Source: Telmatocola sphagniphila
Lineage (GTDB): Bacteria; Planctomycetota; Planctomycetia; Gemmatales; Gemmataceae
DNA length: 32,000 nucleotides
Reading direction: 5' to 3'
Assembly: GCF_018398935.1 (NCBI RefSeq)
Contig: NZ_CP074694.1
Span: 1,050,001-1,082,000 of the forward strand
Shown: positions 11,266-28,440 of the stretch, in pieces
Numbering within the stretch: position 1 is the first letter of the stretch
Layout: each line of letters opens with the position of its first letter
Translations under genes and position numbers: made by a program
The notes under the pieces: generated by a model
What the model was told of the DNA's origin: nothing
The model's input: only the letters and a program-made list of their open reading frames with translations
Databases searched by the model: none

Positions 11266-11477
11266 TATTCATGTCTCTTCGATTTCCTTAACCTGTGATC
11301 TGGTATTGTCTTGGGTGGTACTGGCCACTTGCCAGTGCGTATTCAAATTAATTTGATCACTGATGCGTAGTTAAGAACGATTTCCGACTTTGAGATTGCC
11401 ATGTTTCTGGATTGTGATCGTGGGCTTTCAAACATCCTTCGCAATTGCGGGAAAAATTGCCCTTTTTTTCTTTAATC

Positions 11478-11675
11478 GGACGTGTAAGCGAGGGCAGATG
11501 AGTTGCGCTGCCTATCTTCGTTAGCCCGACGCGTAAGCGAGGGCAATAATAAATAATATTCCATCTCCGCGAACCGACTATACAAAGAAAGTTTGTGTAC
11601 ATTATTTATACAAAACAATTCCATTCATTGTTCATGGACCTATATATACTCACTGCCCTCGCCAACGCTTCGGGT
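11478..11675. repeat. Iteron-like repeats flanking an AT-rich core
   Basis: GGACGTGTAAGCGAGGGCA (11478-11496) and CGACGCGTAAGCGAGGGCA (11527-11545) are direct copies 49 bp apart. An inverted partial copy, CTGCCCTCGCCAACGC (from 11653), shares the core GCGAGGGCAG. The segment between them (11546-11650) is strongly AT-rich. Confidence 0.45.
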
Positions 11676-12163
11676 CAAACAAGACGGCGTCCAAAGCTTT
11701 CAAAATTGCCCCTCACAATCACGGTCGACAAGGCATTATCATGTGGCTAAACTGAAATACCCAGATCTTGTTTTAGCCTCAATCAACGACTGTTTTCCCA
11801 TTGCGAATTCAACATCGCCGGCTTTTGACATTGAAACAGCGAGAACAACAGATTCTCTATCAAAGCGGACGATGACACAAACCTCCTCTACTGAAACGGA
11901 GTCGTTAAAAGTGAATGTTGCCAGTTGGTTCACGACGCACCTCCACCAGTTGATAAAATAATAGAATGCGATTGCGGCGAGCTTATCAAAGTCACTTCCA
12001 CATACCCACATACTGGATTTGATACTTGGGTGCAGGAAGATGACCCTTCTGGGCTCCCCCACAACCCACCTTGCCCGAGAGCCTCCAACGGTTTAAGCTT
12101 TAGCGTGCGTTCCATCCAGAACGCATTCCTCACATCGTATCCCTCATTTCCCCGCTACCTGCC

Positions 12164-13237
12164 ATGACCCAGCCAAGAAAAAAACGAAAAATTCAGTACT
12201 TCGTACCACTCGACAAAATCACCGAACGGGCCGCCGAGTGGATCTGGAAGCCCTGGCTGCCGATCGGCAAACTATGCCTGCTCGACGGCGATCCCGGACA
12301 AGGTAAATCGCTTGTTACGCTCGATCTGGCTGCCCGAATTTCTCAAGGTCGATCTTTTCCCGATCGGCAACGAAACGCCCTCGGCCCCGCCAATGTGCTA
12401 CTCATTTGCTGCGAAGATAACTTGCGAGATACCGTGTTGCCGCGCTTGCAATCTTTGGGGGCGGATCTCTCGAGAATCTTCAGCTATCAGTCGAACTCGA
12501 CGAAGTCGATCCCTAACGCGCTCCCAAAATTTCCCAGAGATTTCCGCAAGCTGGAGTCGACTCTGCGCCGTACCAAGGCGAGACTCGTCATCGTCGACCC
12601 GCTTCTTCCATTTCTCAGCGCTTCCACGAATGGCATCACTCAACAATCGGTTCGTAAAGTCCTGGGGCCGCTGGCGAGGATGGCCGAGCGTCTTCAAGTG
12701 ACATTCCTCTTCGTCCGATTATTAAACAAAACCAACGGAAAAACAGCGATCTATCGAGGTTCGGGCAGTATGAGCATTCTTTCCAGCATGCGCAGTGCCC
12801 TGCTTATTGGCCGGCATCCCCACAATCCGGAGAAGAGGATTTTGGCTCCGGTGAAAAACAACCTCACCGCCGAAGCGCAAGGACTACAGTTTGTGCTGCA
12901 GAGCAAAGCGGAGGCCGTGAACGTGAAGTGGGAGGGGAAGGTGAATATTCGAGCCAACGAACTGATTGGAGATTTCAAAAGCCTGCCTCCCACCGAATGG
13001 CTGCGCGGCTTCCTCAGCGATAAACATTTCCAGAGCAAGAAGGTCTACGAGGCCGGTCTGAAAGCCGGCTATTCCAGCGCTACACTGGAACGGGCCAAAG
13101 CGACTCTGGGCATAAAATCCAAGGCCAAAAGGCATGCCAACGGCCGCATTGTCTGGTACTGGCTGCCTCCGGGCGAGAAGGATTTTCCGTGGGAGGAGAT
13201 CTGTGAACTCGGTTTTGAGCACAATCCTCATGATTGA
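12164..13237 (+). CDS. RepA-like / AAA_25-type RecA-fold ATPase of mobile-element origin
   Basis: The Walker A motif is LLDGDPGQGKSLVTLDLAA and the Walker B-like motif is ARLVIVDPLLPF. A later segment, YRGSGSMSILSSMRSALLI, and a C-terminal winged-helix-like tail (KKVYEAGLKAGYSSATLERAKATLGIKSKAK) follow. This architecture is typical of plasmid, phage and genomic-island replicative or primase-associated ATPases. Confidence 0.78.
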   Translation: MTQPRKKRKIQYFVPLDKITERAAEWIWKPWLPIGKLCLLDGDPGQGKSLVTLDLAARISQGRSFPDRQRNALGPANVLLICCEDNLRDTVLPRLQSLGADLSRIFSYQSNSTKSIPNALPKFPRDFRKLESTLRRTKARLVIVDPLLPFLSASTNGITQQSVRKVLGPLARMAERLQVTFLFVRLLNKTNGKTAIYRGSGSMSILSSMRSALLIGRHPHNPEKRILAPVKNNLTAEAQGLQFVLQSKAEAVNVKWEGKVNIRANELIGDFKSLPPTEWLRGFLSDKHFQSKKVYEAGLKAGYSSATLERAKATLGIKSKAKRHANGRIVWYWLPPGEKDFPWEEICELGFEHNPHD

Positions 13238-13460
13238 TCAAAATGCCGTTAATTCCCGAGAAATAGTCAAAGGTCATCAAATTCGCGTTTTCCACTATGT
13301 GAAAAATGATGATCTGATGACCTTTAAGGAGAAACCACTGCAAAAACGAGAAATAGCGAGTGGTAGGGATTGGTAGTAAATGTGAGAGTCGATTGAACAA
13401 AGACTCTGTTTTGAGTCGGGTAAAGTGTGAAAAGGGCGATTGGTTACTTCAGTTAGAGGC

Positions 13461-13625
13461 CTAGATTCCTCGTTTGCGGCCGAACACCAGGGAGAAGATC
13501 AGGAGGACAATAAATATGAAAAAGAGTATGCGGGCAATCTCTTCAGCTCCGCTGGCAATGCCTCCGAAACCGAAAATAGCGGCAATGATTGCGACAATAA
13601 AGAAACCGATGGCGTAACGAAGCAT
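13461..13625 (-). CDS. ytjA: Small membrane protein, YtjA/UPF0391 (DUF1328) family, 54 aa
   Basis: This gene is absent from the ORF track because it is under 60 aa. The reverse-strand ATG at 13625 gives [54 protein letters not shown], with a stop (TAG) at 13463-13461. It is collinear with E. coli YtjA as I remember it ([53 protein letters not shown]). Confidence 0.85.
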
Positions 13626-13789
13626 AAGCGACCTTTCTTAATAGGGAATAACATTCTACTCAAACTTCCAAATGAGGTGGCTCGTATAAGTGTCCGATCA
13701 GTCGATTGCCCGTGGGTGCCGGGCAAAGGAAACGAGTGGGTTGGGGGAGAGGACTCAGTGCAATCAAGAAATCGAGCAAAGGAATTATT

Positions 13790-13807
13790 GAGAGGAGTTT
13801 TCCTCTC
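13790..13807 (-). terminator. Candidate terminator downstream of the CobN-like operon
   Basis: GAGAGGA-GTTT-TCCTCTC forms a perfect 7-bp stem. It lies ~115 nt downstream of the DUF2149-like stop on the minus strand and is followed on that strand by AATAATTCCTTTGC. Confidence 0.3.
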
Positions 13808-13921
13808 TTATTATGAGAATATCACCGTTGCTCGGGGAGAGCAATGGCTTCGAAATCTATCAGGATGGCTACTGTCCTACGTGTGTCATGATGCTTTAGC
13901 GGATGCGGGGCCGAAAGACAG

Positions 13922-14236
13922 TTACTTCTTCTTTTCCGGAACGTAGACCACTTTGCCCGATTTGAGCCGATAAGCCGTACCGAGGCGTTCCCCTTCACCG
14001 GTAAGCTGGTTGTTCGTCATTCGCAACGTTTCCACTTCTTTCCCCTGTTGGGTTACGATCTCCATATCGGGCTCACCAGGATTCTTCACAGGCGTGCCGG
14101 AGGCTTCCGAATTCCGAGTCACCGTCCAGGTAGCTAACAGCACCGCCACGGCGAAGACCAGCCAGACATCGAATAGATTCAGAAGTCCCGCTGCCGGATC
14201 GTCTTCTTCCAGTTCCCACTTTCGTTTTTTACGCAT
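13922..14236 (-). CDS. DUF2149-like single-pass membrane protein (ExbD/TolR-like topology)
   Basis: The product is 104 aa. A basic and acidic N-terminus (MRKKRKWELEEDDPAAG) is followed by one TM helix (LLNLFDVWLVFAVAVLLATW) and a ~65-aa soluble C-terminal domain. The start overlaps the upstream stop by 8 nt (ATGCGTAA). The family call rests on remembered size, topology and neighbourhood with CobN and MotA/ExbB homologues, not on an alignment. Confidence 0.7.
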   Translation of the reverse strand: MRKKRKWELEEDDPAAGLLNLFDVWLVFAVAVLLATWTVTRNSEASGTPVKNPGEPDMEIVTQQGKEVETLRMTNNQLTGEGERLGTAYRLKSGKVVYVPEKKK

Positions 14237-14852
14237 GGTCGGGCTTCTCGGGATAGAGTCGATTCAGAATGTACTCGAGATTGTCTAGATCCCGACTGGC
14301 CCAGGAACGACGAACCAAGCCGATGCCATAGGAGATACAACTTGTGACCAAACCCACTACGGTGGCGGCGAAGGCGACCACTAAATTCGAAGAAAGCTGT
14401 TGGACATTACCAGAGCTCAAGCCAGTCAGAGCCGGACCCAATGGAATGAGTGTTCCGAGCAAACCCAACATCGGACTAACGCGAGTAAGAAAAGAGAGTT
14501 TAGCGATGACATCCGCCGTGTCGCTTTCGAGATCTGAGAGACGCTTTCGTAGAACATCGGCGGAAGCGGGTCGTGTCGGGAGTCCTCGAATGAGAGCAGC
14601 GATTAAAGGATTTCGCGCCGACTGGAGTTGCTTCCATACATCGGAGAGTTCCAATTGCGGTTCGTCGCAGGCCAGAACAAGGTTTTTCAATGGCCGCTGG
14701 TGTCGAGCGCGTATGGCCCAGTCTCTTAAAAATGTGCCAGACAGAACGAGCACACCGGCAAGACAAATGAGAACCGCTAGTAAGACGGGTATGAGCAAGG
14801 CTCCGGAGATGACGGACATTACCTCCGTGATCGATGCAACGGTTTTATCCAT
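14229..14852 (-). CDS. MotA/TolQ/ExbB-family proton channel protein
   Basis: There are three TM segments. The family signature SPMLGLLGTLIPLGPAL lies in the second and LVVAFAATVVGLVTSCISYGIGLV in the third. I prefer the ATG at 14852 (MDKTVASITEV...), which overlaps the CobN-like stop by 8 nt (ATGGATAA). The ORF-track start at 14882 would overlap by 38 nt. Confidence 0.88.
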   Translation of the reverse strand: MDKTVASITEVMSVISGALLIPVLLAVLICLAGVLVLSGTFLRDWAIRARHQRPLKNLVLACDEPQLELSDVWKQLQSARNPLIAALIRGLPTRPASADVLRKRLSDLESDTADVIAKLSFLTRVSPMLGLLGTLIPLGPALTGLSSGNVQQLSSNLVVAFAATVVGLVTSCISYGIGLVRRSWASRDLDNLEYILNRLYPEKPDHA

Positions 14853-17800
14853 TACAGGTTTCCCTCGAGCGTCGCATAGCACCCGCCAGAATCAAGAGGA
14901 TAACCACTCCGCCGACACTGAGTCTCAACCAACTCGGGTTAACGCTTACAGGAGCCGCATTCGTTTCAGCCATTTCATTACCGCTCACGCTGGCATTATT
15001 TTCCGAAGGGGCTGCGCTGGCGCCGGCGACATCATTTGGAGGCTGGGTCGATTTCGCGATAGCCGTCTGGTAAGCCGTTTTGATAGGGGCTTCATTCGGA
15101 GCATTCAGAAGGGTGCTGACCTCGGTTTGCAATTTCAGATTACCTCCGGTAGCCAGTCCGGCACTATCGCCATGTTTAGCTACGCTTTGAGCATATTCCA
15201 GAGCGAGTTCATGTCGGGTAGCCTCGTCCGCTTTCCAATCCCCTTTCCGGGCGGCTTCCAGCAGCGTGGCCAGAATTTCCTGCCGAGCGAAAGGATTCTC
15301 TTTATCCATCCAGTCCTTCAAATGAAGCCCATGTTTGTCTTTGGCATAAACAGCATGAATTTCTTTCCAAAGTTCTTGCGACACGGCTCCTTTACGGGTG
15401 GCTTCCCAACCGGAGGTATTTCGAACCACCTCCACCATCATCCCAGCGCCGGAGTAGCCGTTTTCCATCATACCCTTGATCCATTTAGGATTGAGCATAG
15501 TGACGTACGCTTCCGTGGTCAGCACTTCATCGAAGTCGCGGACTTTGGGATTGCCACGAACATCATTAAAGAGAAGTTTGGGTTGTTTACCCGTGGTGGA
15601 TTCGATCGCCAGACTCAATCCTCCGGCGTACTCGTACACATGGTGGTTGGTCAACGGTCCTGTCATATTCGAAGTCCAGGTGCGTAGTATGAGTTCCGTT
15701 CCTTTCATGGCGTCATCGTACAGACCGGGAACACTTTCGCCCCAGGCATCGCCAGTGAAGGCGTAGGACATGTTCTGTTTATAAATCTCAGCGATTTCCT
15801 TGCGATCGTCCCAGGCGCCGGTCTTGGGAACCAGATAGAGAATATTCGTCCCATGAGATCCCGGTTTGGCTCCGAACAAGCGGGCGGGAGCATAAAGTTT
15901 CACTTTATCGGGAGCGATACCTCGTTTGGTTAACTCGGCGGCCTTTTCCTGAGTGCCCGTTCGAACAAAATTGTCCGGTTCGTTTAGTTCAGATACTAAA
16001 CGAATCGCCTTATCGATCAGTTTTACTCGGGAGGTGAAGGTGTCTCGCATGCTGCCGCCGAGTGCCAGGAAGACATCGATGCGCGGGCGCTTGAGTTCAT
16101 CCCTCGGGATGATTTCGACATTCACTGCGAGATTGTTGTGATCCCAGACAGGCCGAACTCCCATCAGAAATAAAGCTTGCGATTCGGTGACGCCGTAATC
16201 GCGAATGGTTTCATGGCCGTTGAGATCGAGAGCGACCTTGCGAAGGTTGGGACGGTCTTTCAATAATTGTTCGACAAGTTGAACGCCGACTTCCCAGGCC
16301 TGTTTCGTCGGCAATTCCTCGGGGTTCAGGGCGTAGAGGTTGCGACCGGTCGGGATCGCGCTCGGATTACGGACTGGATCGGATCCGGGACCTGGGGAAA
16401 CGAACGTTCCTTCGAGTGCTCTCAGGATGTTTTCGACTTCTTTGCCGCTCTGCTTGAATTGTTCTCGGAACTCAACGACTCGCCGCAACGTTTCGACAAT
16501 TCGCTTGGGATCGCCGGGGGGAATTTTGGCTCCAGCTAATTTCAATACATCTTCGGGGGCGTATCCATCGGCGACGATCGACTTAACCATCGCTTCCAAT
16601 TGGGGTCGAACCCATAGGGGGATATGTTCTGGTTCTTTTGCGACCTCGGCAGGCACGGGCAGTACCTTCCCCAGATCGTCCAGGTACTGCTGTCCCAGCA
16701 TGCTGGTCAGAAACGGAATCAGATGTTTGGCTTCTGGCTCCTGGCCGAGCGTGTGCAATTTCACAGCAGTAACCGAAAGTTCTATCTGATGCAATTGAAA
16801 GGCAATCTGTTCGATTTCTTTGTCGGAGAGTTCCCCCGATTGACGCGAGAACGCCGCTTTGCGGGACGCCTCGGAAATGGTCTTTCGATACTTCTGCTTC
16901 AAAAGCCCTTCTTCCAATGCGGCGAATTTATCGATATCGTTGTGGAGATTTTGTAATTCCGGTGTCAGCCCCGTGGATTCCAGAGGCGGGGTCAGATGAT
17001 CGACCGTGACGGCGTAGGCCCGTCGTTTGGCCATGATAGCCTCGGCGATATTATCGATGATCCAGGGGTATATATTGGGCAGGTTACCGAGACAGATGTC
17101 GCTGAAACTATCACCGGAGAGGCCATTAGCTTTACCTGGCAACAACAGTTCAGTGCCGTGCGTTCCAAAGTGCATCACGGCGTCGGCCTTAAATTCTTTC
17201 TGAAGCCACCAGTAGCAGGCGAGGTATTGGTGCGGTGGAGGGACATCCTTGGCGTGCAGTAATTTTTCATCGTTCTCCGGGCCACGAGCGGGCTGTGGCA
17301 GAAGAATCACGTTGCCTAAATCGATGCGCGGAAGCACGATCGATTTCCGGTCAGCGGTTGTCATTTGAGCGCCGGGTGCCGGTCCATAGGCCTTGGTGAC
17401 TACACCCTGATTTGCATTACTCAGCGTGGCAAACCATTTGGAATATTCTGTAACTGGCCAGAGTACCGGTTTGCCGACTCGAATCAACTCGGCTAGATCT
17501 CCTCCGGCCCAGGTTCCGACATTGTGGCCATCTCGTTTCATCCATTCCAGAAGCTCCAGGGTGTCTTTGGGAAATTTCGTGAAAGTATAGCCGCGAGCTT
17601 TCATGGCCTTTAGAACGCGGAAAAGACTTTCCGGTCCGTCCAGGAACGCGCCGGTGGCGCTACCGCGACCGACATCGGATTTGCCGAGATATTTGTTGTA
17701 ATAGATGATGGCGATTTTCTTTTCGGCATTCGGCTTCTTCCGAAGATTCAACCAGGACATAACACGCCCGGTTAACCGCTCCACACGATCGGGAATGGGT

Positions 17801-18798
17801 TCGTGTAATTTGAAACCGCCGACGTTCGCCTTCATAGCTCCGGTAACTACCGGATCGATAATTCCGTGCACTTCCTGAGTGAGAAAATGCAGGCCCACAT
17901 CAGCCGGTAGCATTCCCTGAATTGAGGAATCCCATTCGGCCACGGTCGAGCGAAGCAACATCACATTCTTGATTATCGGGATGTCGAGTTGTTCCGCTCC
18001 GGTTTTTAAAGCAGTCGACGCGTGGTGATCGTCGATGATAAGGTCCGGTTTCCAGGCCTCCAGCAATTCTTGTTGTTTTCCGGTAGAGGATCCGCCGAAG
18101 AGCACAGCCACGTTTACTCCCCGTTTCTCGAGACTATTCACCAGGGCTTCGTAGACTTTCGTGTCGCCGGTCATCAGGAAGCCTTGTTGAACCAGAAGTG
18201 CCACCCGAGGATTGCCGAGTTGGAAGTGCGACGATTTCCCGGCCCATTGGAGGTAAGCCGGTACATCGGAGAAAAGATCGGAAGCGGCCGGGTGGTAGAC
18301 TCCGAAATCGGGCACGATCACGGGAGGAAGAATCTCATCTTTGCCTTTCAGGTATTTGTTGCGGACGTAAGCCAGGAGCCTTTTAGTATTTTCAAGTCCG
18401 TTATATTTCCAGTACTTATAGATTTCCGGATCCTTATGCAGCAGACCGGCTTGTTCAAAACTCTTCTGCGTATCGCGCTGTGACAGAGAGAGTACAATAA
18501 GCCCCGGTCTGTTCTTCTTGGCTTCGGTAACCCGTTCCTTCAATTTCGCGGCCCCATCCGGCTTGAGGTTCAGCAGAAAAATAACGTCGGTCGTGGAAAG
18601 CTGATTGGTTGTCACCTGATCCGTATCTTCCGTAGTAACGAATTTCGCATTCATCCCTAAACTGGTGGCGGCCCGATCAAACATCGTTTCGCCGTAATCC
18701 CAACCGCCAATCACCAACAGGTTTTCACCGGCATAGACCGCGCTTGAGGAAAGGAGTAAACTGGTGAGCAGGGGCAGAAAGGAGAGTATAGATTTCAC
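14845..18798 (-). CDS. cobN: CobN/ChlH-family (class I chelatase large subunit) homologue with N-terminal signal peptide and C-terminal membrane anchor
   Basis: The product is 1317 aa. It carries the conserved CobN/Mg-chelatase signature VMHFGTHGTELLLPGK and is collinear with the family throughout. The N-terminus MKSILSFLPLLTSLLLSSSAVYA|GE looks like a Sec signal peptide. The C-terminus has a low-complexity linker, then SWLRLSVGGVVILLILAGAM, then RRSRETCNG. Confidence 0.92.
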   Translation of the reverse strand: MKSILSFLPLLTSLLLSSSAVYAGENLLVIGGWDYGETMFDRAATSLGMNAKFVTTEDTDQVTTNQLSTTDVIFLLNLKPDGAAKLKERVTEAKKNRPGLIVLSLSQRDTQKSFEQAGLLHKDPEIYKYWKYNGLENTKRLLAYVRNKYLKGKDEILPPVIVPDFGVYHPAASDLFSDVPAYLQWAGKSSHFQLGNPRVALLVQQGFLMTGDTKVYEALVNSLEKRGVNVAVLFGGSSTGKQQELLEAWKPDLIIDDHHASTALKTGAEQLDIPIIKNVMLLRSTVAEWDSSIQGMLPADVGLHFLTQEVHGIIDPVVTGAMKANVGGFKLHEPIPDRVERLTGRVMSWLNLRKKPNAEKKIAIIYYNKYLGKSDVGRGSATGAFLDGPESLFRVLKAMKARGYTFTKFPKDTLELLEWMKRDGHNVGTWAGGDLAELIRVGKPVLWPVTEYSKWFATLSNANQGVVTKAYGPAPGAQMTTADRKSIVLPRIDLGNVILLPQPARGPENDEKLLHAKDVPPPHQYLACYWWLQKEFKADAVMHFGTHGTELLLPGKANGLSGDSFSDICLGNLPNIYPWIIDNIAEAIMAKRRAYAVTVDHLTPPLESTGLTPELQNLHNDIDKFAALEEGLLKQKYRKTISEASRKAAFSRQSGELSDKEIEQIAFQLHQIELSVTAVKLHTLGQEPEAKHLIPFLTSMLGQQYLDDLGKVLPVPAEVAKEPEHIPLWVRPQLEAMVKSIVADGYAPEDVLKLAGAKIPPGDPKRIVETLRRVVEFREQFKQSGKEVENILRALEGTFVSPGPGSDPVRNPSAIPTGRNLYALNPEELPTKQAWEVGVQLVEQLLKDRPNLRKVALDLNGHETIRDYGVTESQALFLMGVRPVWDHNNLAVNVEIIPRDELKRPRIDVFLALGGSMRDTFTSRVKLIDKAIRLVSELNEPDNFVRTGTQEKAAELTKRGIAPDKVKLYAPARLFGAKPGSHGTNILYLVPKTGAWDDRKEIAEIYKQNMSYAFTGDAWGESVPGLYDDAMKGTELILRTWTSNMTGPLTNHHVYEYAGGLSLAIESTTGKQPKLLFNDVRGNPKVRDFDEVLTTEAYVTMLNPKWIKGMMENGYSGAGMMVEVVRNTSGWEATRKGAVSQELWKEIHAVYAKDKHGLHLKDWMDKENPFARQEILATLLEAARKGDWKADEATRHELALEYAQSVAKHGDSAGLATGGNLKLQTEVSTLLNAPNEAPIKTAYQTAIAKSTQPPNDVAGASAAPSENNASVSGNEMAETNAAPVSVNPSWLRLSVGGVVILLILAGAMRRSRETCNG

Positions 18799-18827
18799 GT
18801 CCGGCGATCCAAGTTACGAGGATGAAA

Positions 18828-19265
18828 CTACTTTAAATCGAAATCGATGGCAATGTTCTGAGGAGCTACTGGGACGCGAAGTTTGGAGGAACGGTTGGAA
18901 TAGACCCCTTTGAGGTTGTCTGGCAGTGAGCCAGATTCGTCCATTGCAAGTCCCGGCTTCGGCCAACTGATTGTGACGATAAATTCACCAGCGGGCGAAC
19001 CATCCTTCGGCGCATAACTGGTAAGTTGGTAGATTCCATTTTCATCCGCAATTCCTCCCGCCACAACCTCCGGTTTGGGATTGTCCCGAGGCAAAAAGCT
19101 GATCCTGGCATTTTGCATCACCGTCCCCTTGTATGTCCGCTTTCCTTCCACGGGATAGACGGGGGGATGATTTGGCCCTCCCGAACAGCCTAGGATCAGG
19201 AGGGGCAAACCCGAAAGAAACAACCCCCGAATTTCGCCAGCCATAAGTTTCACAGAACTTCTCAC
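18828..19265 (-). CDS. Small lipoprotein with carboxypeptidase-regulatory-like (transthyretin-like) beta-sandwich pattern
   Basis: The lipobox is LLILG-C. The pattern VEGKRTYKGTVMQNARISFLP...GGIADENGIYQLTS....GSPAGEFIVTISW matches the G.V...G.P...A.V.F....G.TDE.G.Y.L......G.Y.V motif of CarboxypepD_reg-like domains. The ORF-track start at 19265 is GTG; ATG at 19244 is the alternative. Confidence 0.7.
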   Translation of the reverse strand: MRSSVKLMAGEIRGLFLSGLPLLILGCSGGPNHPPVYPVEGKRTYKGTVMQNARISFLPRDNPKPEVVAGGIADENGIYQLTSYAPKDGSPAGEFIVTISWPKPGLAMDESGSLPDNLKGVYSNRSSKLRVPVAPQNIAIDFDLK

Positions 19266-19302
19266 GTTGAGAATCAGGCAGGAGGTCGATCCGTCTCGAA
19301 TG

Positions 19303-20412
19303 TTAATCCAAAGGGCCGGGAATATCGCCGTAGCGAGCGGTTAATAATGCGGCCATGGTAGAAAGCGAGATATTTTTCGTGAGAAATCGCACCGATCCAT
19401 CTCCTAGACAGACTTGAGCTCCCCCCGTATGGAAGCTATACATCCCCCGGAAATTGCTGCAGTTGATTACGCAAGCGTCTCCGAGAGAGGAAGGAAAAGT
19501 TGATGCGTTCCACTGTTTCATTCCATCAGAACTGAAGATTCCCGCGCCGAAATTGTTGTTCTGAGCCCAGGCGCCAAACCCGTACGAAAGAGCGATATCG
19601 TTTGTAGGGTCATTCAGGCTGGCGCTGATGGCATAGGAGGGGAAGTTCGCAAAGCTGAGTTTGTTGCCACCGGCCACATACATCCAGGGCCGACCCCCCA
19701 TTTCGGAAAAAAGGATCGTGTTAGAGAGACCATCGGTTGCACCGATTAGTGTGTAACGCTTGGGTTGGGAGGTTGCGGAATAGGATTGCTGAGGTCCTAG
19801 AATGCCACTCAAATCCGAGCTACCGGCTAGCGGTGTCGAACTGTCGAAGTGATTGAGAATGGCGAAGTAGGTGGCACTAGCACCCGATAGTGCATAATAG
19901 TCGACGCGGGCCGCGGTGAATTGCCAGCCACCGCCGACAGGGTTGTTGGTATCCGAGAATGAGGAGCTCGGGCAAATGGCCGTGAAAACGTCGGATGTCG
20001 GGTTGGAAGGGCATTCCGCTACGGGTAAACGCGTTGTGATTACGCTGTTAAGGGCCTGATGGTGCCAGGCATAGTTGTAGAGCGTACCACCTTGCGCGGT
20101 GCATGTAGCCGAATACTGACTGAATAGATTGCCTTGTTCAATGAATGGAAGGAGAGGGGTCGTCCAGCTCAGCTCATTCGACGAGCCGTAAAGTGTGGGC
20201 AGGTAACCGAAGGTGAGTTCATAGTTGTGGCAGGCCAAACCAAACTGCCGCATGTTACTCTGACATTTCATGCGAGCGGCGGACTCCCGAACTTTTTGCA
20301 CCGCCGGGAGAAGTAGACCGATCAAAATGGCAATAATCGCGATCACTACCAGCAATTCGATGAGGGTAAAAGCCGCCGGTGGTACTCGTCGCTTATTTCT
20401 GGAAATCATCAA
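19303..20412 (-). CDS. DUF1559 protein with prepilin-type N-terminal cleavage/methylation domain and C-terminal H-X9-DG motif
   Basis: The N-terminus is ...[44 protein letters not shown], which is a type IV pilin-like leader plus the DUF1559 start. The C-terminus [18 protein letters not shown] has H, nine residues, then DG. This family is greatly expanded in Planctomycetota. Confidence 0.92.
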
Positions 20413-20447: not shown

Positions 20448-20467
20448 TGTAGTTAAAAATAACTACA
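20448..20467. promoter_or_regulatory. Perfect 8-bp inverted repeat upstream of the DUF1559/CobN-like cluster (candidate operator)
   Basis: TGTAGTTA-AAAA-TAACTACA lies 36 nt upstream of the DUF1559 start codon, inside a 415-bp AT-rich divergent intergenic region. Confidence 0.25.
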
Positions 20468-23220: not shown

Positions 23221-24642
23221 TCATGCCAGGATCTCCTTCACTACCCGGCCGTGGATATCGGTTAGCCGATAATCCCTACCAGAGTTTCGATAGGTCAATT
23301 TCTCGTGATCGAGCCCCATCAAGTGCAGAATTGTGGCATGGAAATCGTGAACGTGAACGGGATCTTTAGCCACGTTAATACCGTACTCGTCCGATTCGCC
23401 GAAAGTGATTCCCGGTTTAACGCCTGCTCCGGCCAACCAGGAAGAGAAAACCCAATGATGGTGCTCCCGTCCTTTGGCATCGGCCGCGGAATTAAAAGGA
23501 GTGCGGCCAAATTCGGTCGTCCAGACAACCAGCGTATCCTGTAACAGGCCGCGCTGTTTAAGATCTTTGAGAAGGCCTGCAATCGCCCCATCGACATTCT
23601 TTGCCAAAGGGACATGCGTCATCATATCGCCGTGAGCATCCCAATTGTTGGAGGAACCCACATCGATGAGCTCTACGAAGCGAACCCCTCTTTCAATGAG
23701 TCGGCGGGCGGTAAGGCACTGCCAGGCAAAGCCTTTCGTGCTGCCACGCTCCAGTCCATAGAGTTTCAAGGTGGCATCGCTCTCTTTACTGAAATCGAAC
23801 ACTTCCGGCATTTCCGACTGCATTCCAAAAGCTGTCTCGAAGCTTCTCATGCGAGCCTCCAATAGAGGATCCTTCGGATGTGAATCGAGATGGCGCTGAT
23901 TCATCTGTGCCAGAAGCCGGAGCTCCATTTCCTGCAGAGGAGCCGAAAGGGTGCGTCTTTTAATATTCGCTACCGGCTCTGCACCGGGAACCACCAGTGT
24001 ACCCTGGTGGGAGCCGGGAAGAAAATCGCTTCCCCATACTTGGCCCCCCGCGTAGGGAGATTGCGGCGCAATGACTATGAACGAAGGAAGATTGCGATTT
24101 ACCGTCCCAAGTCCATAGCTGATCCAGGATCCCATGCTGGGTCTGGCGAATGTGAAGGAACCGGTGTGCATGCCCAGTGTCGCTTCGTAGTGATTGGTGT
24201 GATCCGACTTCATGGAACGGATCACGCATAAATCGTCCACGCACTCAGCCATCTGGGGGAAGAGCTGGCTGACTTCGGTACCGCTTTTACCGTGCCTCTT
24301 GAAATCCCAATTCGGACGTTTCAGGAACATTTTAAAATCCCCTTTACGGCCCTGAAATTCATTCACCGGAATTGTTTTGGTAGCATCGGCGAAGAGCTTG
24401 GGTTTGGGATCCCAGGTATCGATATGCGATACACCGCCGCTCATATAGAGGAAGATGACTCTTTTCGCTTTGGCAGGAAAATGGCCCGGTTTCGGAGCCA
24501 GAGGATCCACGGAGGAGGAATTTCCCTCTTCCGCTAGCAGTCGAGCGACAATGCCGGGCATCAACATCGATCCGGCGATCATCGAGCGTAACGCGCCGCG
24601 ACGGGTAGGATCACCTTTTGAATTCCAGTTCATGGTTGCCAT
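23221..24642 (-). CDS. DUF1501 (sulfatase-fold) protein with Tat-type signal
   Basis: The preferred start gives MATMNWNSKGDPTRRGALRSMIAGSMLMPG, a twin-arginine-like leader. Family hallmarks are VIFLYMSGGVSHIDTWDPKP and the C-terminal DFHATILHLMGLDHEKLTYRNSGRDYRLTDIHGRVVKEILA. The ORF-track start at 24750 would overlap the upstream gene by 89 nt. Confidence 0.92.
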   Translation of the reverse strand: MATMNWNSKGDPTRRGALRSMIAGSMLMPGIVARLLAEEGNSSSVDPLAPKPGHFPAKAKRVIFLYMSGGVSHIDTWDPKPKLFADATKTIPVNEFQGRKGDFKMFLKRPNWDFKRHGKSGTEVSQLFPQMAECVDDLCVIRSMKSDHTNHYEATLGMHTGSFTFARPSMGSWISYGLGTVNRNLPSFIVIAPQSPYAGGQVWGSDFLPGSHQGTLVVPGAEPVANIKRRTLSAPLQEMELRLLAQMNQRHLDSHPKDPLLEARMRSFETAFGMQSEMPEVFDFSKESDATLKLYGLERGSTKGFAWQCLTARRLIERGVRFVELIDVGSSNNWDAHGDMMTHVPLAKNVDGAIAGLLKDLKQRGLLQDTLVVWTTEFGRTPFNSAADAKGREHHHWVFSSWLAGAGVKPGITFGESDEYGINVAKDPVHVHDFHATILHLMGLDHEKLTYRNSGRDYRLTDIHGRVVKEILA

Positions 24643-24661
24643 CCGAAATCGGGGGAGGTAT

Positions 24662-25792
24662 TTAGTCCACGTGCAAAAATTCATTGCTGCCGAGCAGGGT
24701 GCGCAAGTAGGCCGCGAGGGATCGCTGCTCGACGTTGTCCAGCTTGGCATTTTTCAATTCTGTTCGATACGCATTCAGGAAACCGAGTGCTTCGCTTCTT
24801 TCCTGTTCGCTCGGTGTTCGGCCTATGGCTTGTATCCAGGCGAGTTCAATCTGTCTCAATGGATCTGGAGAGCTCAATTGAAGTCGACTGGCCCATTTCT
24901 GAGCTTTCGCATGAACGAACGGATCGTTCAGGAAAAACAGCGATTGTGTAGGTACAGTAGTCGTTTGCCGATCTGCCGTGGTCGCATTCGGGTCGGCTCC
25001 ATCAAACAGCGCCAGGAACGGATGTCGCTTCAGTCGCTGGGTCATGAGATAAATGCTCCGTTTATCGTGCTCATAGACAGCACTAAATGGAGAATGCTGC
25101 GAATAGCCCCATTGCGCCGGGGAAGGGAATGGGTGCTCTTTGGCAGGCGTGCGGTCCAATTCCCCGCTAACGGCAAGAATCGAGTCCCGAATCTCTTCGG
25201 CACTCATGCGTCGGCGCGGGAATGAGATATAAAGATCGCTGATATCGAGATTCTTTCTGGTACTGGATTCAGAAGAGTCCGGAATTGATGATTGTTGATA
25301 GGCGGAGCTCAGCATGATTAAACGGTGCATTTCCTTGATTGACCAACCGTTTTTCATGAAGTGACTCGCCAAATGGTCGAGCAATTCGGGATGCGTCGGT
25401 GGCAAGCCGCGAACCCCGAAATCGTTGGGAGTTTTAACGAGTCCTCGACCGAAATGGTGTTGCCAAATTCTATTCACTATTACCCGAGCAGTTAAAGGGT
25501 TATCGGCTCGGGTGAGCCAATTCGCCAGTTCTAATCGCCCGCTTCCCACGATATTTGGTGGAAGTGCGTTGCCGCCGAGCGACCGGATAAGACTGCGAGG
25601 AACCATCTCTCCCGGTTTGTCGGGCTCGCCACGCAACTGAATGGCAACGTTATGGGGAGTCCCTTCCACAACTCCGTAAGTCATCTCAAAGGGGCCTTCG
25701 ATGAGCTTCTTGCTAAAAACCCTTTTGTCTGCTTCCAGCCGCAGTAGCTGAGCGCGTAATTCCATAATCTGAGCACGGCGATTCCTCTCCAA
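24662..25792 (-). CDS. C-terminal fragment (DUF1553 / PSD1 part) of a frameshifted PSCyt1-DUF1549-DUF1553 gene
   Basis: The fragment contains TYGVVEGTPHNVAIQLRGEPDKPGEMVPRSLIRSLGG, NRIWQHHFGRGLV, and the family-typical end LLGSNEFLHVD. It has no plausible start of its own. This frame is open upstream as far as 25897 and continues the upstream fragment if one C is added to the C6 run (plus-strand G6 at 25808-25813). Confidence 0.85.
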   Translation of the reverse strand: MERNRRAQIMELRAQLLRLEADKRVFSKKLIEGPFEMTYGVVEGTPHNVAIQLRGEPDKPGEMVPRSLIRSLGGNALPPNIVGSGRLELANWLTRADNPLTARVIVNRIWQHHFGRGLVKTPNDFGVRGLPPTHPELLDHLASHFMKNGWSIKEMHRLIMLSSAYQQSSIPDSSESSTRKNLDISDLYISFPRRRMSAEEIRDSILAVSGELDRTPAKEHPFPSPAQWGYSQHSPFSAVYEHDKRSIYLMTQRLKRHPFLALFDGADPNATTADRQTTTVPTQSLFFLNDPFVHAKAQKWASRLQLSSPDPLRQIELAWIQAIGRTPSEQERSEALGFLNAYRTELKNAKLDNVEQRSLAAYLRTLLGSNEFLHVD

Positions 25793-28440
25793 CGGATTTG
25801 CCTTGGCGGGGGGCCATCGAAAGCCGGCAATGGCTTGTTCTGGATCACGAAATTGTCGGCATCCAGAGAAGGTCGAACGCCACCGATGTGGCCATAGCTA
25901 TCAATGAAAGTATGGTTGAGGGTACCGTCCCAACCGGTAGCAAACTGGCCCTCAAAAGTGACTCTGCCGGTATGGGAAGTTAGAGAACCTCTATAGGATT
26001 TTAATTTGAGATCGAGAGTCAGTTGCAGCTGATACCATTGGCCGCATACTAAAGACCCCACCGCTTCCCGAGCGTCACCGCTCTGACGGAAAAATTTCTC
26101 GCCGTTGAAGAACAGTTCAACAGCTGCTGATTGTCCGGGGCCATGCCCAATGTAATACCTCCAGGAACCATTACCTCCCGCTGCCTGGCTTTCACAGCGG
26201 AAATCGAAACCGAGGTAGAGTAAACCCTGTGGATTGGGGCTCAATTTGGGGAGAGCCTGGCCGAAGCCATCGTACTCCCCGCGGTTGGGCATGTGGATTC
26301 CCAACTGCCCTTTTTCGTAAAGGTTCTCGAAAGGGCTTTGCGAGTTGACCGACAATTTCACCGCACTATTCGGCCCGGCGTTCCAAGGAGCAATAGGTGG
26401 CTGATCGTTAGCTTGCGATTCGAAATCTCCATCAATTCCTGCGATAGCCTGAAGTTGTTCCGCAATTGAGACGCGATCGAGTTTTTTGTCATTATTGGCT
26501 GCAGGCGGCTTCTCAGAGAACGCGGGAATAGGACTGAGTTGCACGCCAATATTGTCGTAGTCAATTGCGGGATGTTTCTGTTGCTGATTCACCGAATCCA
26601 ATTCGACCGATTCGATGCGACCCATCCACTCCTGCGAAATCGATTTCTCTTTAAACTCACTAGTTGAGCCGGGGAAACCATATCGACCGGAGATCTTCCG
26701 ATTTTTAAGATCCAGATCGAGTTGGAGGTTGTACCACTGGTTCGGCTGAATTGCTCCTAAACGTTCAATGGAAGCACCGCTCTTTAATGTGAGAGCATCG
26801 GCAGAAATCAAGATTTCGAAGACTGGTACAGAACCAATTGAATCGAGTCTGAAACGATGCATTCCCTTTGCTGGGAGATTACCATTGCCGACTCGGAAGT
26901 CGAGATTCACGTAGAGATGGCTACTATTTGAATCCGTATATATCGGATACAAAGCCTGCTTTACACTATAGTCTTCCGCTCCCGAGGATATCGAAATACC
27001 CGCTTTACCCGAGGGATAGAGATTCTGAAAGGGGCTTTGAGCGGCGTTGGTAACCGCGATTTTTCCCTCGTAAAGCCAAGGAGGGACAAGCACGCCATTG
27101 CTACCTCCCGCAGCAGGGGCCTGCATTTCAAAATCGCCATCCATTTCATGAAGAGAATGCTGGATGGAAACGGGTAGACTTTGCTTCTCTCTTGACAGTT
27201 CGCGAGAAAGCTGAGCGACTTGTCTTTGGAACTCGCGCCATTTGAGTTGCGATTCCGCAGGAGGCTCAAGAGGGACCATCAATGAATTTCGCTGCTTCTG
27301 CTCTGAACCTGGAAATGCGTAACGGCTACTATCGAAGATGGCATAGAGTCCGTAATAATCTTTCATCGAAATGGCATCGAATTTGTGATCGTGACATCGA
27401 GCACAACCCAGACTCAGTCCCAGAATTGATTGGCCTAGCGTATCGATCGTGTCCTGAATGGTCAGATACTGGTAGTTTTCGGAATCGAAGCCGAATCGTC
27501 GGGATATGGCTAGGTATCCGGTTGCAATTACCTGCTCGGCATACTTCTCGCGGGGACCTTGATTCGCCAATATGTCGCCGGCAATTTGCTCGCGCAGAAA
27601 TTGATCGTAAGGCTTGTCTGCATTGAAAGAATCGATGACGTAGTTCCGATAACGCCAGGCCTGCGGAACGGGATAATCGGCCGTGTCGCCCGCGGTATCG
27701 GCATAGCGAACAATATCGAGCCAATGCCGGCCCCATCGTTCGCCATATGCGGGAGATTTCAGCAATCGCTCGATGAGCGATGCATATGCACCGGGCGAAG
27801 TATCCTTCAAGAAGATGTCAATCTCAGCGGGAGTGGGAGGTAATCCCGTCAGATCTAAGGTTGCTCGCCGAATTAAGATCAGTTTGTCGGCTGGCTTCGC
27901 AGCTTTCAATCCAGATTTGATTTGACGGGAATGGAGGAAGGCATCGATACTATTTTGTTTGAGAGAATCATTAGAAATCCTTGGAGGTGGCCAATCACGA
28001 ACAGGTTCGAAAGACCAGTGTTTCGCGGCCAGGAATTTAGCGGATTTCGAGGGCCAGTTCGCTCCTTCCTTGACCCACTTTTCGAAGTAGGCGATTTGTT
28101 CGGACTTCAAGGCTTTTTCTTTTTCAGGTGGCATGGCTGAGATGTCGGCTTGGCGTCGAATCGCACGTATAAGGAGGCTTTCTTCCGGCTTACCGATAAC
28201 CAGGGCGGGACCGGAATCTCCGCCTTTGAGAAGAGCTTCCCGGGAATCCAGTCTCAATCCGCCGGAAGTCTTGATGCCACCGTGGCAGCGAAAGCAGGTA
28301 TCAATTAGAATCGGGCGAATTTTCGATTCGAAAAAATCCTCGCGTTCGTCCGCCCGAACTAGTGACGGCTGAGCAGCCAGGAAAATCAGGAATAGAATCG
28401 CGCCAGGGTAAGACTGCAGTCTCATACCAGACGGCTCCAA
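25681..28440 (-). CDS. N-terminal fragment (signal peptide, PSCyt1 CxxCH domain, DUF1549, two inserted beta-sandwich-like domains) of the same frameshifted gene
   Basis: The leader is MRLQSYPGAILFLIFLAAQPSLVRA. The planctomycete cytochrome-c-like motif is FFESKIRPILIDTCFRCHGG...GGLRLDS. The DUF1549 part is IDAFLHSRQ..GLKAAKPADKLILIRRATLDLTGLPPTPAEID...ERWGRHWLDIVRYADT, followed by LGCARCHDHKFDAIS. The last ~35 codons (RQIRWRGIAVLRLWNYALSYCGW...) look like out-of-frame read-through. Confidence 0.88.
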   Translation of the reverse strand: MEPSGMRLQSYPGAILFLIFLAAQPSLVRADEREDFFESKIRPILIDTCFRCHGGIKTSGGLRLDSREALLKGGDSGPALVIGKPEESLLIRAIRRQADISAMPPEKEKALKSEQIAYFEKWVKEGANWPSKSAKFLAAKHWSFEPVRDWPPPRISNDSLKQNSIDAFLHSRQIKSGLKAAKPADKLILIRRATLDLTGLPPTPAEIDIFLKDTSPGAYASLIERLLKSPAYGERWGRHWLDIVRYADTAGDTADYPVPQAWRYRNYVIDSFNADKPYDQFLREQIAGDILANQGPREKYAEQVIATGYLAISRRFGFDSENYQYLTIQDTIDTLGQSILGLSLGCARCHDHKFDAISMKDYYGLYAIFDSSRYAFPGSEQKQRNSLMVPLEPPAESQLKWREFQRQVAQLSRELSREKQSLPVSIQHSLHEMDGDFEMQAPAAGGSNGVLVPPWLYEGKIAVTNAAQSPFQNLYPSGKAGISISSGAEDYSVKQALYPIYTDSNSSHLYVNLDFRVGNGNLPAKGMHRFRLDSIGSVPVFEILISADALTLKSGASIERLGAIQPNQWYNLQLDLDLKNRKISGRYGFPGSTSEFKEKSISQEWMGRIESVELDSVNQQQKHPAIDYDNIGVQLSPIPAFSEKPPAANNDKKLDRVSIAEQLQAIAGIDGDFESQANDQPPIAPWNAGPNSAVKLSVNSQSPFENLYEKGQLGIHMPNRGEYDGFGQALPKLSPNPQGLLYLGFDFRCESQAAGGNGSWRYYIGHGPGQSAAVELFFNGEKFFRQSGDAREAVGSLVCGQWYQLQLTLDLKLKSYRGSLTSHTGRVTFEGQFATGWDGTLNHTFIDSYGHIGGVRPSLDADNFVIQNKPLPAFDGPPPRQIRWRGIAVLRLWNYALSYCGWKQTKGFLARSSSKAPLR

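Follow-up and report, generated by a model that had tools for sequence, protein, structure and literature searches.

The window analyzed here is the whole 32,000-nucleotide (nt) stretch of Telmatocola sphagniphila contig NZ_CP074694.1 (positions 1,050,001 to 1,082,000), and the subject of this analysis is a run of five co-directional genes on its minus strand. Their products are a DUF1559 protein, a small lipoprotein, a CobN-like protein, a MotA-like protein and a DUF2149 protein, encoded in the following order (window coordinates; aa, amino acids):

19303-20412, minus strand, DUF1559 gene, 369 aa
18828-19265, minus strand, small lipoprotein gene, 145 aa
14845-18798, minus strand, CobN-like gene, 1317 aa
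14229-14852 from ATG (to 14882 from an upstream GTG), minus strand, MotA-like gene, 207 or 217 aa
13922-14236, minus strand, DUF2149 gene, 104 aa

On balance, the five genes probably represent the form that a widespread envelope module takes in Planctomycetota; its Bacteroidota counterpart is hmuR-hmuS-(hmuT)-hmuU-hmuV, and its counterpart in Pseudomonas aeruginosa is PA1922-PA1925. The core trio of CobN-like, MotA-like and DUF2149 genes is already known and spread from Proteobacteria to methanogens, with a mechanism that is unsettled; what appears to be new is the exchange of the TonB-dependent receptor for a DUF1559 protein in Planctomycetota. An initial annotation of the window, made from the sequence alone, had reported the five genes as tightly packed, and this arrangement is real: the genes are separated by 37 nt and 29 nt and then joined by two 8-nt overlaps. 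The boundaries of the CobN-like, MotA-like and DUF2149 genes were reproduced by an independent gene call on a contig from a Telmatocola sequencing run, and the overlapping CobN-like and MotA-like genes are predicted to be co-transcribed. The DUF1559 and DUF2149 proteins matched proteins of T. sphagniphila (Gemmataceae) with 100% identity. The family assignments made at that stage for the DUF1559, CobN, MotA_ExbB and DUF2149 proteins held in Pfam and NCBIfam profile searches, and the quoted motifs HFGTHGTELLLPGK (CobN family) and SPMLGLLGTL (MotA-like protein) are present. As had also been stated, no gene for ChlI, ChlD, CobS, CobT, TonB, a TonB-dependent receptor or another tetrapyrrole function was found among the open reading frames (ORFs) of the window that were scanned.

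For comparison, 23 homologs of the CobN-like protein were aligned (alignment A1) and one genome per GTDB species was then scanned, which gave at least 80 loci; loci from exact-protein look-ups were added to this sample, so that 85 loci were compared in total. Membership of the trio was determined with jackhmmer seeded with the window proteins, and receptors were identified with jackhmmer seeded with a TonB-dependent receptor from Roseimicrobium. The linkage of CobN-like, MotA-like and DUF2149 genes that the initial annotation had proposed as a unit turned out to be tight and widespread, the trio being found in this order in 71 of the 85 loci among the matches listed. These came from Beta-, Gamma- and Alphaproteobacteria, Bacteroidota, Verrucomicrobiota, Lentisphaerota, Acidobacteriota, Desulfobacterota, Aquificota, a metagenome-assembled genome (MAG) of the Firmicutes and the archaeon Methanothrix, in addition to Planctomycetota. 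Loci without the trio mostly held canonical ChlH/CobN genes or were truncated contigs. DUF748 was tried as a conserved neighbor and rejected, as jackhmmer found no such family common to the loci.

The trio corresponds to hmuS, hmuU and hmuV (PMC11681262, PMC12583661, PMC13227078) and to PA1923-25 (PMC4542158), and the earlier label of a candidate novel system therefore overstates the case. In the hmu locus of Porphyromonas gingivalis, hmuS encodes a CobN-like protein, hmuT a hypothetical membrane protein, hmuU a member of the MotA/TolQ/ExbB family and hmuV a DUF2149 protein (PMC11681262). HmuS of Bacteroides thetaiotaomicron is a heme dechelatase with N- and C-terminal helix anchors, for which a cryo-EM structure is available (PDB 9D26; PMC12583661), and the P. 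gingivalis protein appears to be bound to the inner membrane and to face the periplasm (PMC13227078). The operon PA1922-PA1925 encodes a TonB-dependent receptor, a CobN-like protein, an 'ExbD' and a hypothetical protein (PMC4542158). A link between HmuS and the removal of iron from heme had been noted in the initial annotation, which had not connected HmuU and HmuV with the MotA/ExbB and DUF2149 proteins.

The CobN-like protein carries a CobN-Mg_chel domain of full length (PF02514; residues 127-1194, E-value 6.9e-292), and its best solved relative is HmuS (9d26_A; 8.7e-149, 500 bits), followed by ChlH (425 bits) and CobN (375 bits). All NCBIfam equivalog models remained below their cut-offs (NF004644, 804 vs. 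1248; TIGR02025 for BchH, 640 vs. 829; TIGR02257 for CobN, 532 vs. 822). Two segments bear on its location:

18730-18798, minus strand, predicted Sec signal peptide, MKSILSFLPLLTSLLLSSSAVYA cleaved before GE, as read from the sequence (hydrophobic maximum 1.73 at residue 4)
14875-14931, minus strand, C-terminal transmembrane (TM) helix, WLRLSVGGVVILLILAGAM, followed by the basic tail RRSRETCNG (hydrophobicity 2.22)

With this N-terminal signal peptide and a C-terminal helix that runs into RRSRE, the protein is by its sequence an exported one that is held in the cytoplasmic membrane by the C-terminal helix with its body in the periplasm, in agreement with the extracytoplasmic location assigned to it before. 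The C-terminal helix and basic tail were common to nearly all trio-linked homologs and absent in ChlH/CobN-type proteins; the anchor helix thus tracks with trio linkage, which indicates that the exported, tethered form of the CobN-like protein and the MotA-like/DUF2149 pair travel together.

Residues were mapped to the numbering of B. thetaiotaomicron HmuS by means of a Bacteroides HmuS in the alignment. The HmuS residues His-538, Glu-577 and His-1209 correspond to H547, E586 and H1053 and are conserved in the window protein, and the site-1 heme ligand His-254 corresponds to H259, a residue shared by all 23 clade members of alignment A1. The phmmer alignment of the window protein to HmuS skips HmuS residues 601-913. 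The pair of residues at the position of HmuS Asp-1208/His-1209 differed by clade, being H-H in the window protein, D-H in HmuS and in Pseudomonas, D-D in most Betaproteobacteria, K-Y in Pirellulales, related Planctomycetota and Wallbacteria, and K-F in Desulfobacter. The existence of at least five such active-site variants among exported CobN-like proteins suggests that their substrates differ. A neighbor-joining (NJ) tree of 82 CobN-like proteins, calculated without support values, placed the window protein in a 'PVC-type' clade, which has the HmuS clade as its sister and lies apart from ChlH/CobN. Because the equivalog scores lie below the cut-offs and several signatures of HmuS failed (see below), the sequence assigns the protein neither to biosynthetic CobN/ChlH nor to HmuS sensu stricto; it is a member of the sister clade. 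One protein from Candidatus Poribacteria (P0038, 1220 aa) was considered as a Rosetta-stone protein in which CobN and MotA are fused, and was rejected. In its single ORF, residues 1 to ~1083 of a CobN-like protein are continued by a MotA-like C-terminal half, and as it is devoid of CobN domain VI, the TM helix and the first TM helix of MotA, it resembles a deletion chimera.

The MotA-like protein matched the Pfam MotA_ExbB family (E-value 3.2e-10, 40.3 bits vs. a cut-off of 22.9) and has three TM helices in a TolQ-like layout, with the Thr of its GLLGT motif (GLxGT) in the second helix; this residue, T134, was invariant in 18 diverse sequences. Profile searches against the PDB retrieved MotA (0.004), TolQ over the full length (0.011) and ExbB (0.33), and the protein belongs to a distinct, HmuU-like branch of the MotA/TolQ/ExbB superfamily. 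The DUF2149 protein (Pfam E-value 3.3e-23, 82.3 bits vs. a cut-off of 27.1) has a single N-terminal TM helix, an Asp within NLFDV and a short periplasmic tail ending in YVPE, and its residues P14, N20 and D23 were invariant in 20 diverse and 52 close sequences. The NLFDV motif resembles the FIDVML motif of ExbD. The protein did not detectably belong to the ExbD family (PF02472), its matches in the PDB (a designed coiled coil and ribosomal protein L4) were dismissed as spurious, and no relative was found there. We use the term 'ExbD-like' for a resemblance in function and motif, homology to ExbD being weakly supported. Clustering at 50% identity places the members of this family among 1.84 billion representatives in ~736 clusters, which makes DUF2149 a compact family.

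Two loci of Methanothrix (L017 and L019) carry the MotA-like/DUF2149 pair together with a gene for a TM-anchored CobN-like protein and have no TonB-dependent receptor in the locus. Archaea such as Methanothrix have no outer membrane. The presence of the pair in Methanothrix, without an outer membrane, and in Planctomycetota, where the locus contains neither a receptor gene nor tonB, suggests that the motor serves the CobN-like protein and that the pair partners this protein itself rather than a receptor. Between the CobN-like and MotA-like genes of these loci lies a gene for a DUF2162 'predicted transporter' with a CPAC motif (L017, 12021-12713; L019, 4104-4793). This slot is also the position of HmuT in Bacteroidota, the only phylum in whose loci HmuT-like ORFs were found.

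The first gene of the window operon encodes a DUF1559 protein with a prepilin-type N-terminus (FTLIELLVV). It matched Pfam DUF1559/SBP_bac_10 (3.2e-41) and N_methyl (2.3e-05), and the models PF07963, PF07596, TIGR02532 and TIGR04294 all scored above their cut-offs, the last of these (H-X9-DG) with 38.2 bits vs. a cut-off of 19. H328, D338 and G339 were invariant in 64 sequences. An AlphaFold2 model built from 64 sequences (predicted local distance difference test, pLDDT, 90.7; predicted template modeling score, pTM, 0.86) showed a 52-residue helix (residues 17-68) followed by an alpha/beta globular domain. In a Foldseek search against the PDB, this model matched type IV pilins only, by way of the helix and with E-values of 0.2-0.8, and its globular domain had no match. 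No pilus-assembly genes were found in the window. DUF1559 is the largest paralog family in Planctomycetota, with 68 paralogs in P. limnophila, of which two are essential (PMC10632474), and none of the papers found to mention DUF1559 gives a function to the family.

Among the matches listed, each of the 15 Planctomycetota loci carried a DUF1559 gene immediately upstream of the cluster, in the same orientation and separated from it by a short gap, and a DUF1559 gene was adjacent in one of 53 others, whereas a TonB-dependent receptor gene was adjacent in none of the 15 Planctomycetota loci and in 39 of the 53 other bacterial loci. The proposal that a DUF1559 protein takes the place of the receptor in this phylum is thus borne out by the sample. 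The linkage extends over three subclades of the NJ tree, with identities between CobN-like proteins down to ~30%. One subclade comprises Gemmataceae including the window, with a receptor-linked Verrucomicrobiota clade as its sister; another comprises Isosphaerales, Pirellulales and Planctomycetales, its sisters being Desulfobacter and Wallbacteria with receptors nearby; the third consists of a Thermoguttaceae protein within the HmuS-like clade. Cluster-linked DUF1559 proteins were 53-69% identical among Pirellulales/Planctomycetales loci and 41-48% within Gemmataceae, over a paralog background of ~27-36%, and 23 positions were conserved in the cluster-linked orthogroup only. In the whole protein collection, the best matches of the window DUF1559 protein in other genomes were the copies adjacent to CobN-like genes: P0122 (L087), P0129 (Frigoriglobus, L001), P0139 (Gemmata, L086), P0128 (L089) and P0123 (L090). 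The occurrence in three subclades, the co-diverging orthologs and the best matches at the cluster together argue against an inherited coincidence. A search of the literature on TonB-dependent receptors in Planctomycetota found nothing usable, and a dedicated DUF1559 ortholog in the receptor slot of this phylum appears to be undescribed so far. In a Victivallaceae MAG (Lentisphaerota), two prepilin-type proteins are encoded upstream of a MotA-like/DUF2149/CobN-like cluster (L044, 2524-5545); they matched DUF1559 mostly through the N-terminal helix, and the CobN-like gene of this locus is split into two ORFs.

The second gene of the operon had been paired with the DUF1559 gene in the initial annotation as a possible feeding module, a pairing of which the DUF1559 half is supported by the comparison of loci and the lipoprotein half is not. 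The 145-aa protein has a lipobox (LILG before the Cys of CS) that is conserved in its homologs. It had been labeled 'CarboxypepD_reg-like', and this label proved to reflect sub-threshold matches of a homolog (L006, 736-1221; DUF6795 1e-5, CarboxypepD_reg 0.14), as the window protein itself had no Pfam or NCBIfam match even at an E-value of ≤1. It is probably a beta-sandwich. As a conserved partner it was rejected, being present at this operon position only in the window, L087 (5512-5976) and L090 (7769-8194), and its distribution marks it as a lineage-restricted accessory. Relatives were encoded after other DUF1559 genes (L006, 736-1221; L090, 1235-1696), and the slot is taken by a second DUF1559 gene in Gemmata and Zavarzinella and by nothing in Frigoriglobus. 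The clusters of Pirellulales and Planctomycetales begin with another lipoprotein gene upstream of the DUF1559 gene, whose product of ~90 aa has the motif CxxC-x(21-24)-CxxxC, a metal-binding-like, treble-clef or TRASH-like pattern with sub-threshold Pfam matches only:

L004, 8547-8837, CxxC...CxxxC lipoprotein
L010, 6400-6774, CxxC...CxxxC lipoprotein
L011, 6464-6736, CxxC...CxxxC lipoprotein
L012, 6279-6587, CxxC...CxxxC lipoprotein
L055, 6483-6758, CxxC...CxxxC lipoprotein

In Zavarzinella (L006, 4124-5785), two secreted EF-hand-like proteins with DxDxDG repeats are encoded just upstream of tandem DUF1559 genes.

With respect to the substrate, the receptors of the sister Verrucomicrobiota clade had the heme/hemoglobin receptor family as their best match, below its cut-off, and hemP was found directly upstream of the receptor gene in the betaproteobacterial trio loci L040 (4873-4983) and L064 (5182-5277). 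It was present elsewhere, not adjoining the receptor, in L049 (2177-2269) and L075 (13066-13185). In L088, hemP (5388-5567) lies divergently beside a tandem DUF1559 pair that is 47% identical to the window protein (P0125), with no CobN-like gene nearby. The receptor match in Verrucomicrobiota and the associations with hemP make heme, or a metalloporphyrin related to it, the foremost candidate for the substrate, other metalloporphyrins or corrinoids being possible.

Under the preferred reading of the locus as a planctomycete Hmu-type module, the CobN-like protein would bind a metallo-tetrapyrrole in the periplasm and remove or exchange its metal, as HmuS does with heme. The MotA-like and DUF2149 proteins would form a stator driven by the proton motive force that acts on the CobN-like protein via its C-terminal helix, and would in this way stand in for the AAA+ ATPases of the cytoplasmic class I chelatases; the proton motive force would be a plausible driver of a chelatase or dechelatase. 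The DUF1559 protein would capture or deliver the substrate, which elsewhere is the job of a TonB-dependent receptor or hemophore. A broader proposal, which is speculative and which we hold to be unlikely, is that the dozens to hundreds of DUF1559 paralogs each capture or deliver a specific substrate and so substitute for TonB-dependent receptors, maybe on a pseudopilus across the enlarged periplasm, and that the one encoded here feeds a metallo-tetrapyrrole to a periplasmic CobN-like chelatase or dechelatase, the conformational cycle of which would be driven directly by the MotA-like/DUF2149 motor in place of AAA+ ATPases.

Several observations weigh against the preferred reading and are set here beside the alternatives on which they bear. 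The same architecture might do another job, the acquisition of a metal or of a non-heme metallo-tetrapyrrole (Zn, Co, Ni, corrinoid, Zn- or Co-porphyrin), which is quite possible although not what we expect. No heme- or iron-related genes, FeoB or Fur accompany the operon in the window, and the CobN-like protein deviates from HmuS at several specific positions: the Met-79 position is a Leu and HAS stands in place of HGR (alignment of the head domain being less certain), the Met-rich insertion is absent (a linker of 170 aa with 1.2% Met vs. 197-247 aa in HmuS-clade loci), and the position of Asp-1208 is a His (H1052, in NHHVYEY), which makes the active-site dyad His-His instead of Asp-His. The Zur-regulated operon PA1922-PA1925 was induced 44-147-fold under Zn limitation, with a rise in cellular cobalt on induction (PMC4542158), and the cobN-exbB-exbD-tonB cluster of Geobacter lovleyi pSZ77, flanked by TonB-dependent receptors, is located between cobalamin clusters (PMC3403914). 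Zinc regulation in Pseudomonas and cobalamin neighbors in Geobacter imply that substrates may differ across the family, and the metal-binding-like lipoprotein added in Pirellulales-type loci points the same way. A substrate other than heme is countered by the position of HmuS as the closest characterized relative with its clade as the sister clade, and by the heme-receptor-like and hemP associations; moreover, no cobalamin riboswitch and no Zur-box evidence was found. The alternative that the MotA-like/DUF2149 pair is a private ExbB/ExbD, energizing transport across the outer or inner membrane and not acting on the CobN-like protein, we regard as rather unlikely. It is nevertheless the role proposed in published models, in which HmuU/HmuV power HmuR or inner-membrane heme transport (PMC12583661 Fig. 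1; PMC13227078 Fig. 8; PMC4542158), and it agrees with the frequent adjacency of receptor genes outside Planctomycetota and with the tonB gene in the Geobacter cluster (PMC3403914). In vitro, soluble HmuS produced protoporphyrin IX from heme with neither ATP nor HmuU/HmuV present (PMC12583661), so that the chemistry itself can proceed without the motor. Furthermore, hhalign aligned the DUF2149 protein with E. coli ExbD (approximate query sequence) over a TM segment of 21 columns with a probability of 8%, and the AlphaFold2 model of the DUF2149 protein (pLDDT 61.8) was confident for the helix only. A motor for transport is, however, at odds with the retention of the pair in Methanothrix and in Planctomycetota loci without a receptor or TonB gene, with its invariable position beside a TM-anchored CobN-like gene in the sampled loci, and with the small, specialized nature of DUF2149, which is not a generic ExbD.

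It is improbable that the DUF1559 gene is a bystander whose adjacency results from sheer copy number and an inherited arrangement. DUF1559 genes are indeed very abundant in these genomes, as expected of the phylum's largest paralog family (PMC10632474), with five copies within 20 kb of L006, and within each subclade the adjacency could represent a single inherited event; the Fisher tests of the contrasts in DUF1559 and receptor adjacency (p = 3.6e-14 and 1.7e-7) have to be read in this light, since the loci are not phylogenetically independent. Copy number does not, however, account well for same-strand, short-gap adjacency in each of the 15 Planctomycetota loci over three CobN-like subclades, for the elevated identity of the cluster-linked copies in Pirellulales/Planctomycetales, for best matches in other genomes that are themselves cluster copies, or for a position exactly in the receptor slot. 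An ordinary CobN of aerobic cobalamin synthesis, served by CobS/CobT encoded elsewhere, is barely credible: it accords with the database name 'cobaltochelatase subunit CobN' and with the full-length Pfam domain, but is already contradicted by the signal peptide and the C-terminal membrane anchor, and the failure of every CobN/BchH equivalog, the lack of cob genes or a riboswitch in the window, the hmu-like linkage to MotA-like and DUF2149 genes and the placement in a clade apart from ChlH/CobN all stand against it.

DUF1559, the largest Planctomycetota family without an assigned function, gains from this locus a concrete genomic context and a first functional clue, and a dedicated ortholog in the receptor slot provides a directly testable hypothesis on the uptake of scarce nutrients. 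For the literature on heme dechelatases, the occurrence of the pair with an anchored CobN-like protein even in the absence of an outer membrane or receptor argues that HmuU/HmuV serve HmuS and not HmuR, and the active-site variation among the exported CobN-like proteins points to differing substrates.

Regulatory elements were searched for in the window and related loci. A scan with Rfam, covering the window and five related loci, detected no cobalamin riboswitch or other RNA upstream (one tRNA, in L001), and promoter and terminator scans gave results no better than shuffles. One palindrome precedes the operon:

20448-20467, no strand assigned, palindrome TGTAGTTA-tttt-TAACTACA, perfect 8-4-8, 36 nt upstream of the DUF1559 start

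Its full sequence is TGTAGTTAttttTAACTACA. It occurs once in the window, against an expectation of 0 from shuffled sequences, and may be an operator or promoter element of this operon; as a shared operator it was rejected, there being no counterpart across the 85 related loci.

The flanks of the operon in the window encode AcrB, HlyD and TetR proteins, an esterase, MgtC, an AAA_25 ATPase, a rhodanese, PHO4, an AraC regulator and a DDE transposase, together with DUF1501, DUF1553 and DUF1549-PSCyt proteins. A DUF1553 ORF (24662-25792, minus strand) and a PSCyt1+DUF1549 ORF (25681-28440, minus strand) overlap by 112 nt in different frames and are followed by a DUF1501 gene (23221-24750). DUF1553 and PSCyt1/DUF1549 domains normally form one polypeptide, and the split may therefore represent a frameshift or pseudogene. 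The region downstream of the operon (11300-13900) has a low GC content of 0.47-0.48 and holds the AAA_25 ATPase gene (12164-13237) and orphan ORFs, and the Telmatocola sequencing-run contig stops near it. The neighbors of the cluster in other Gemmataceae include an integrase, a DDE transposase and a tRNA (L087, 12306-13451; L001, 5265-8263). These surroundings hint at a location of the cluster in mobile or variable regions. The gene call on the Telmatocola contig further included a 54-aa DUF1328 small membrane protein at ~13461-13625 (minus strand), ~300 nt downstream of the DUF2149 gene, and no DUF1328 gene was seen adjoining the cluster in the other loci.

Compared with known systems, the CobN-like protein shares with CobNST and ChlHID/BchHID a homologous catalytic subunit with the full-length PF02514 domain, in which the cleft GTHG His and the Glu are conserved. 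Those chelatases are cytoplasmic, soluble and driven by AAA+ ATPases, whereas the window protein is predicted to be exported, tethered and stator-linked, without AAA+ partners in the window. The pair downstream resembles the stator units ExbB-ExbD-TonB, TolQ-TolR-TolA and MotA-MotB in its MotA_ExbB domain, three-TM layout and conserved Thr in the second TM helix, and in the overlapping partner gene, whose single-pass product has an invariant Asp in its helix, close to the cytoplasmic end. It differs from them in that the MotA-like protein is roughly equidistant from MotA, TolQ and ExbB (E-values of 0.004-0.33) and in that a third protein like TonB or TolA is lacking; apart from the pair, the only membrane-anchored partner encoded in the operon is the CobN-like protein, and its helix has an orientation opposite to that of the TonB helix. 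With type IV pilins and the pseudopilins of type II secretion systems, the DUF1559 protein has in common the cleavage/methylation motif with Glu5, a helix of ~50 residues and matches to the N-terminal parts of the NCBIfam GspG/ComGC models. In contrast to these proteins, it has a globular domain of ~300 aa without a match among solved structures, belongs to a family of which a planctomycete genome holds dozens or hundreds of members, and is encoded within an uptake or processing operon and not in a pilus or secretion locus.

Among the operons of related layout, the Geobacter lovleyi cluster is, by description, alike in having a CobN homolog without CobS/CobT beside exbB/exbD-like genes and unlike in having a tonB gene and receptors and in lying within clusters for cobalamin biosynthesis; for its CobN homolog, a role in the handling of organometallic complexes in the cell envelope was proposed (PMC3403914). 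The operon PA1922-PA1925 agrees with the window in the order of the last three genes and in its exported, C-terminally anchored CobN-like protein (L038, L053), and differs in its upstream gene for a CirA-like TonB-dependent receptor, in the clade of its CobN-like protein and in its induction by zinc limitation. The hmuYRSTUV locus of Bacteroidota (B. thetaiotaomicron, P. gingivalis, B. fragilis) likewise encodes a protein of the CobN/ChlH superfamily that has a membrane segment at either terminus and its body in the periplasm, followed by the MotA/TolQ/ExbB (HmuU) and DUF2149 (HmuV) genes, and the cleft residues His-538 and Glu-577 and the site-1 His-254 are kept in the window protein. Unlike that locus, the window operon has no HmuY hemophore, HmuR receptor or HmuT, the overlap of the CobN-like and MotA-like genes leaving no room for HmuT between them, and carries the DUF1559 and lipoprotein genes upstream instead. 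Its CobN-like protein, without Met-79 and the Met-rich insertion and with His for Asp-1208, belongs to the separate 'PVC-type' sister clade, and whereas the Bacteroidota hosts of hmu are animal-associated heme auxotrophs, Telmatocola is a free-living planctomycete of peat bogs.

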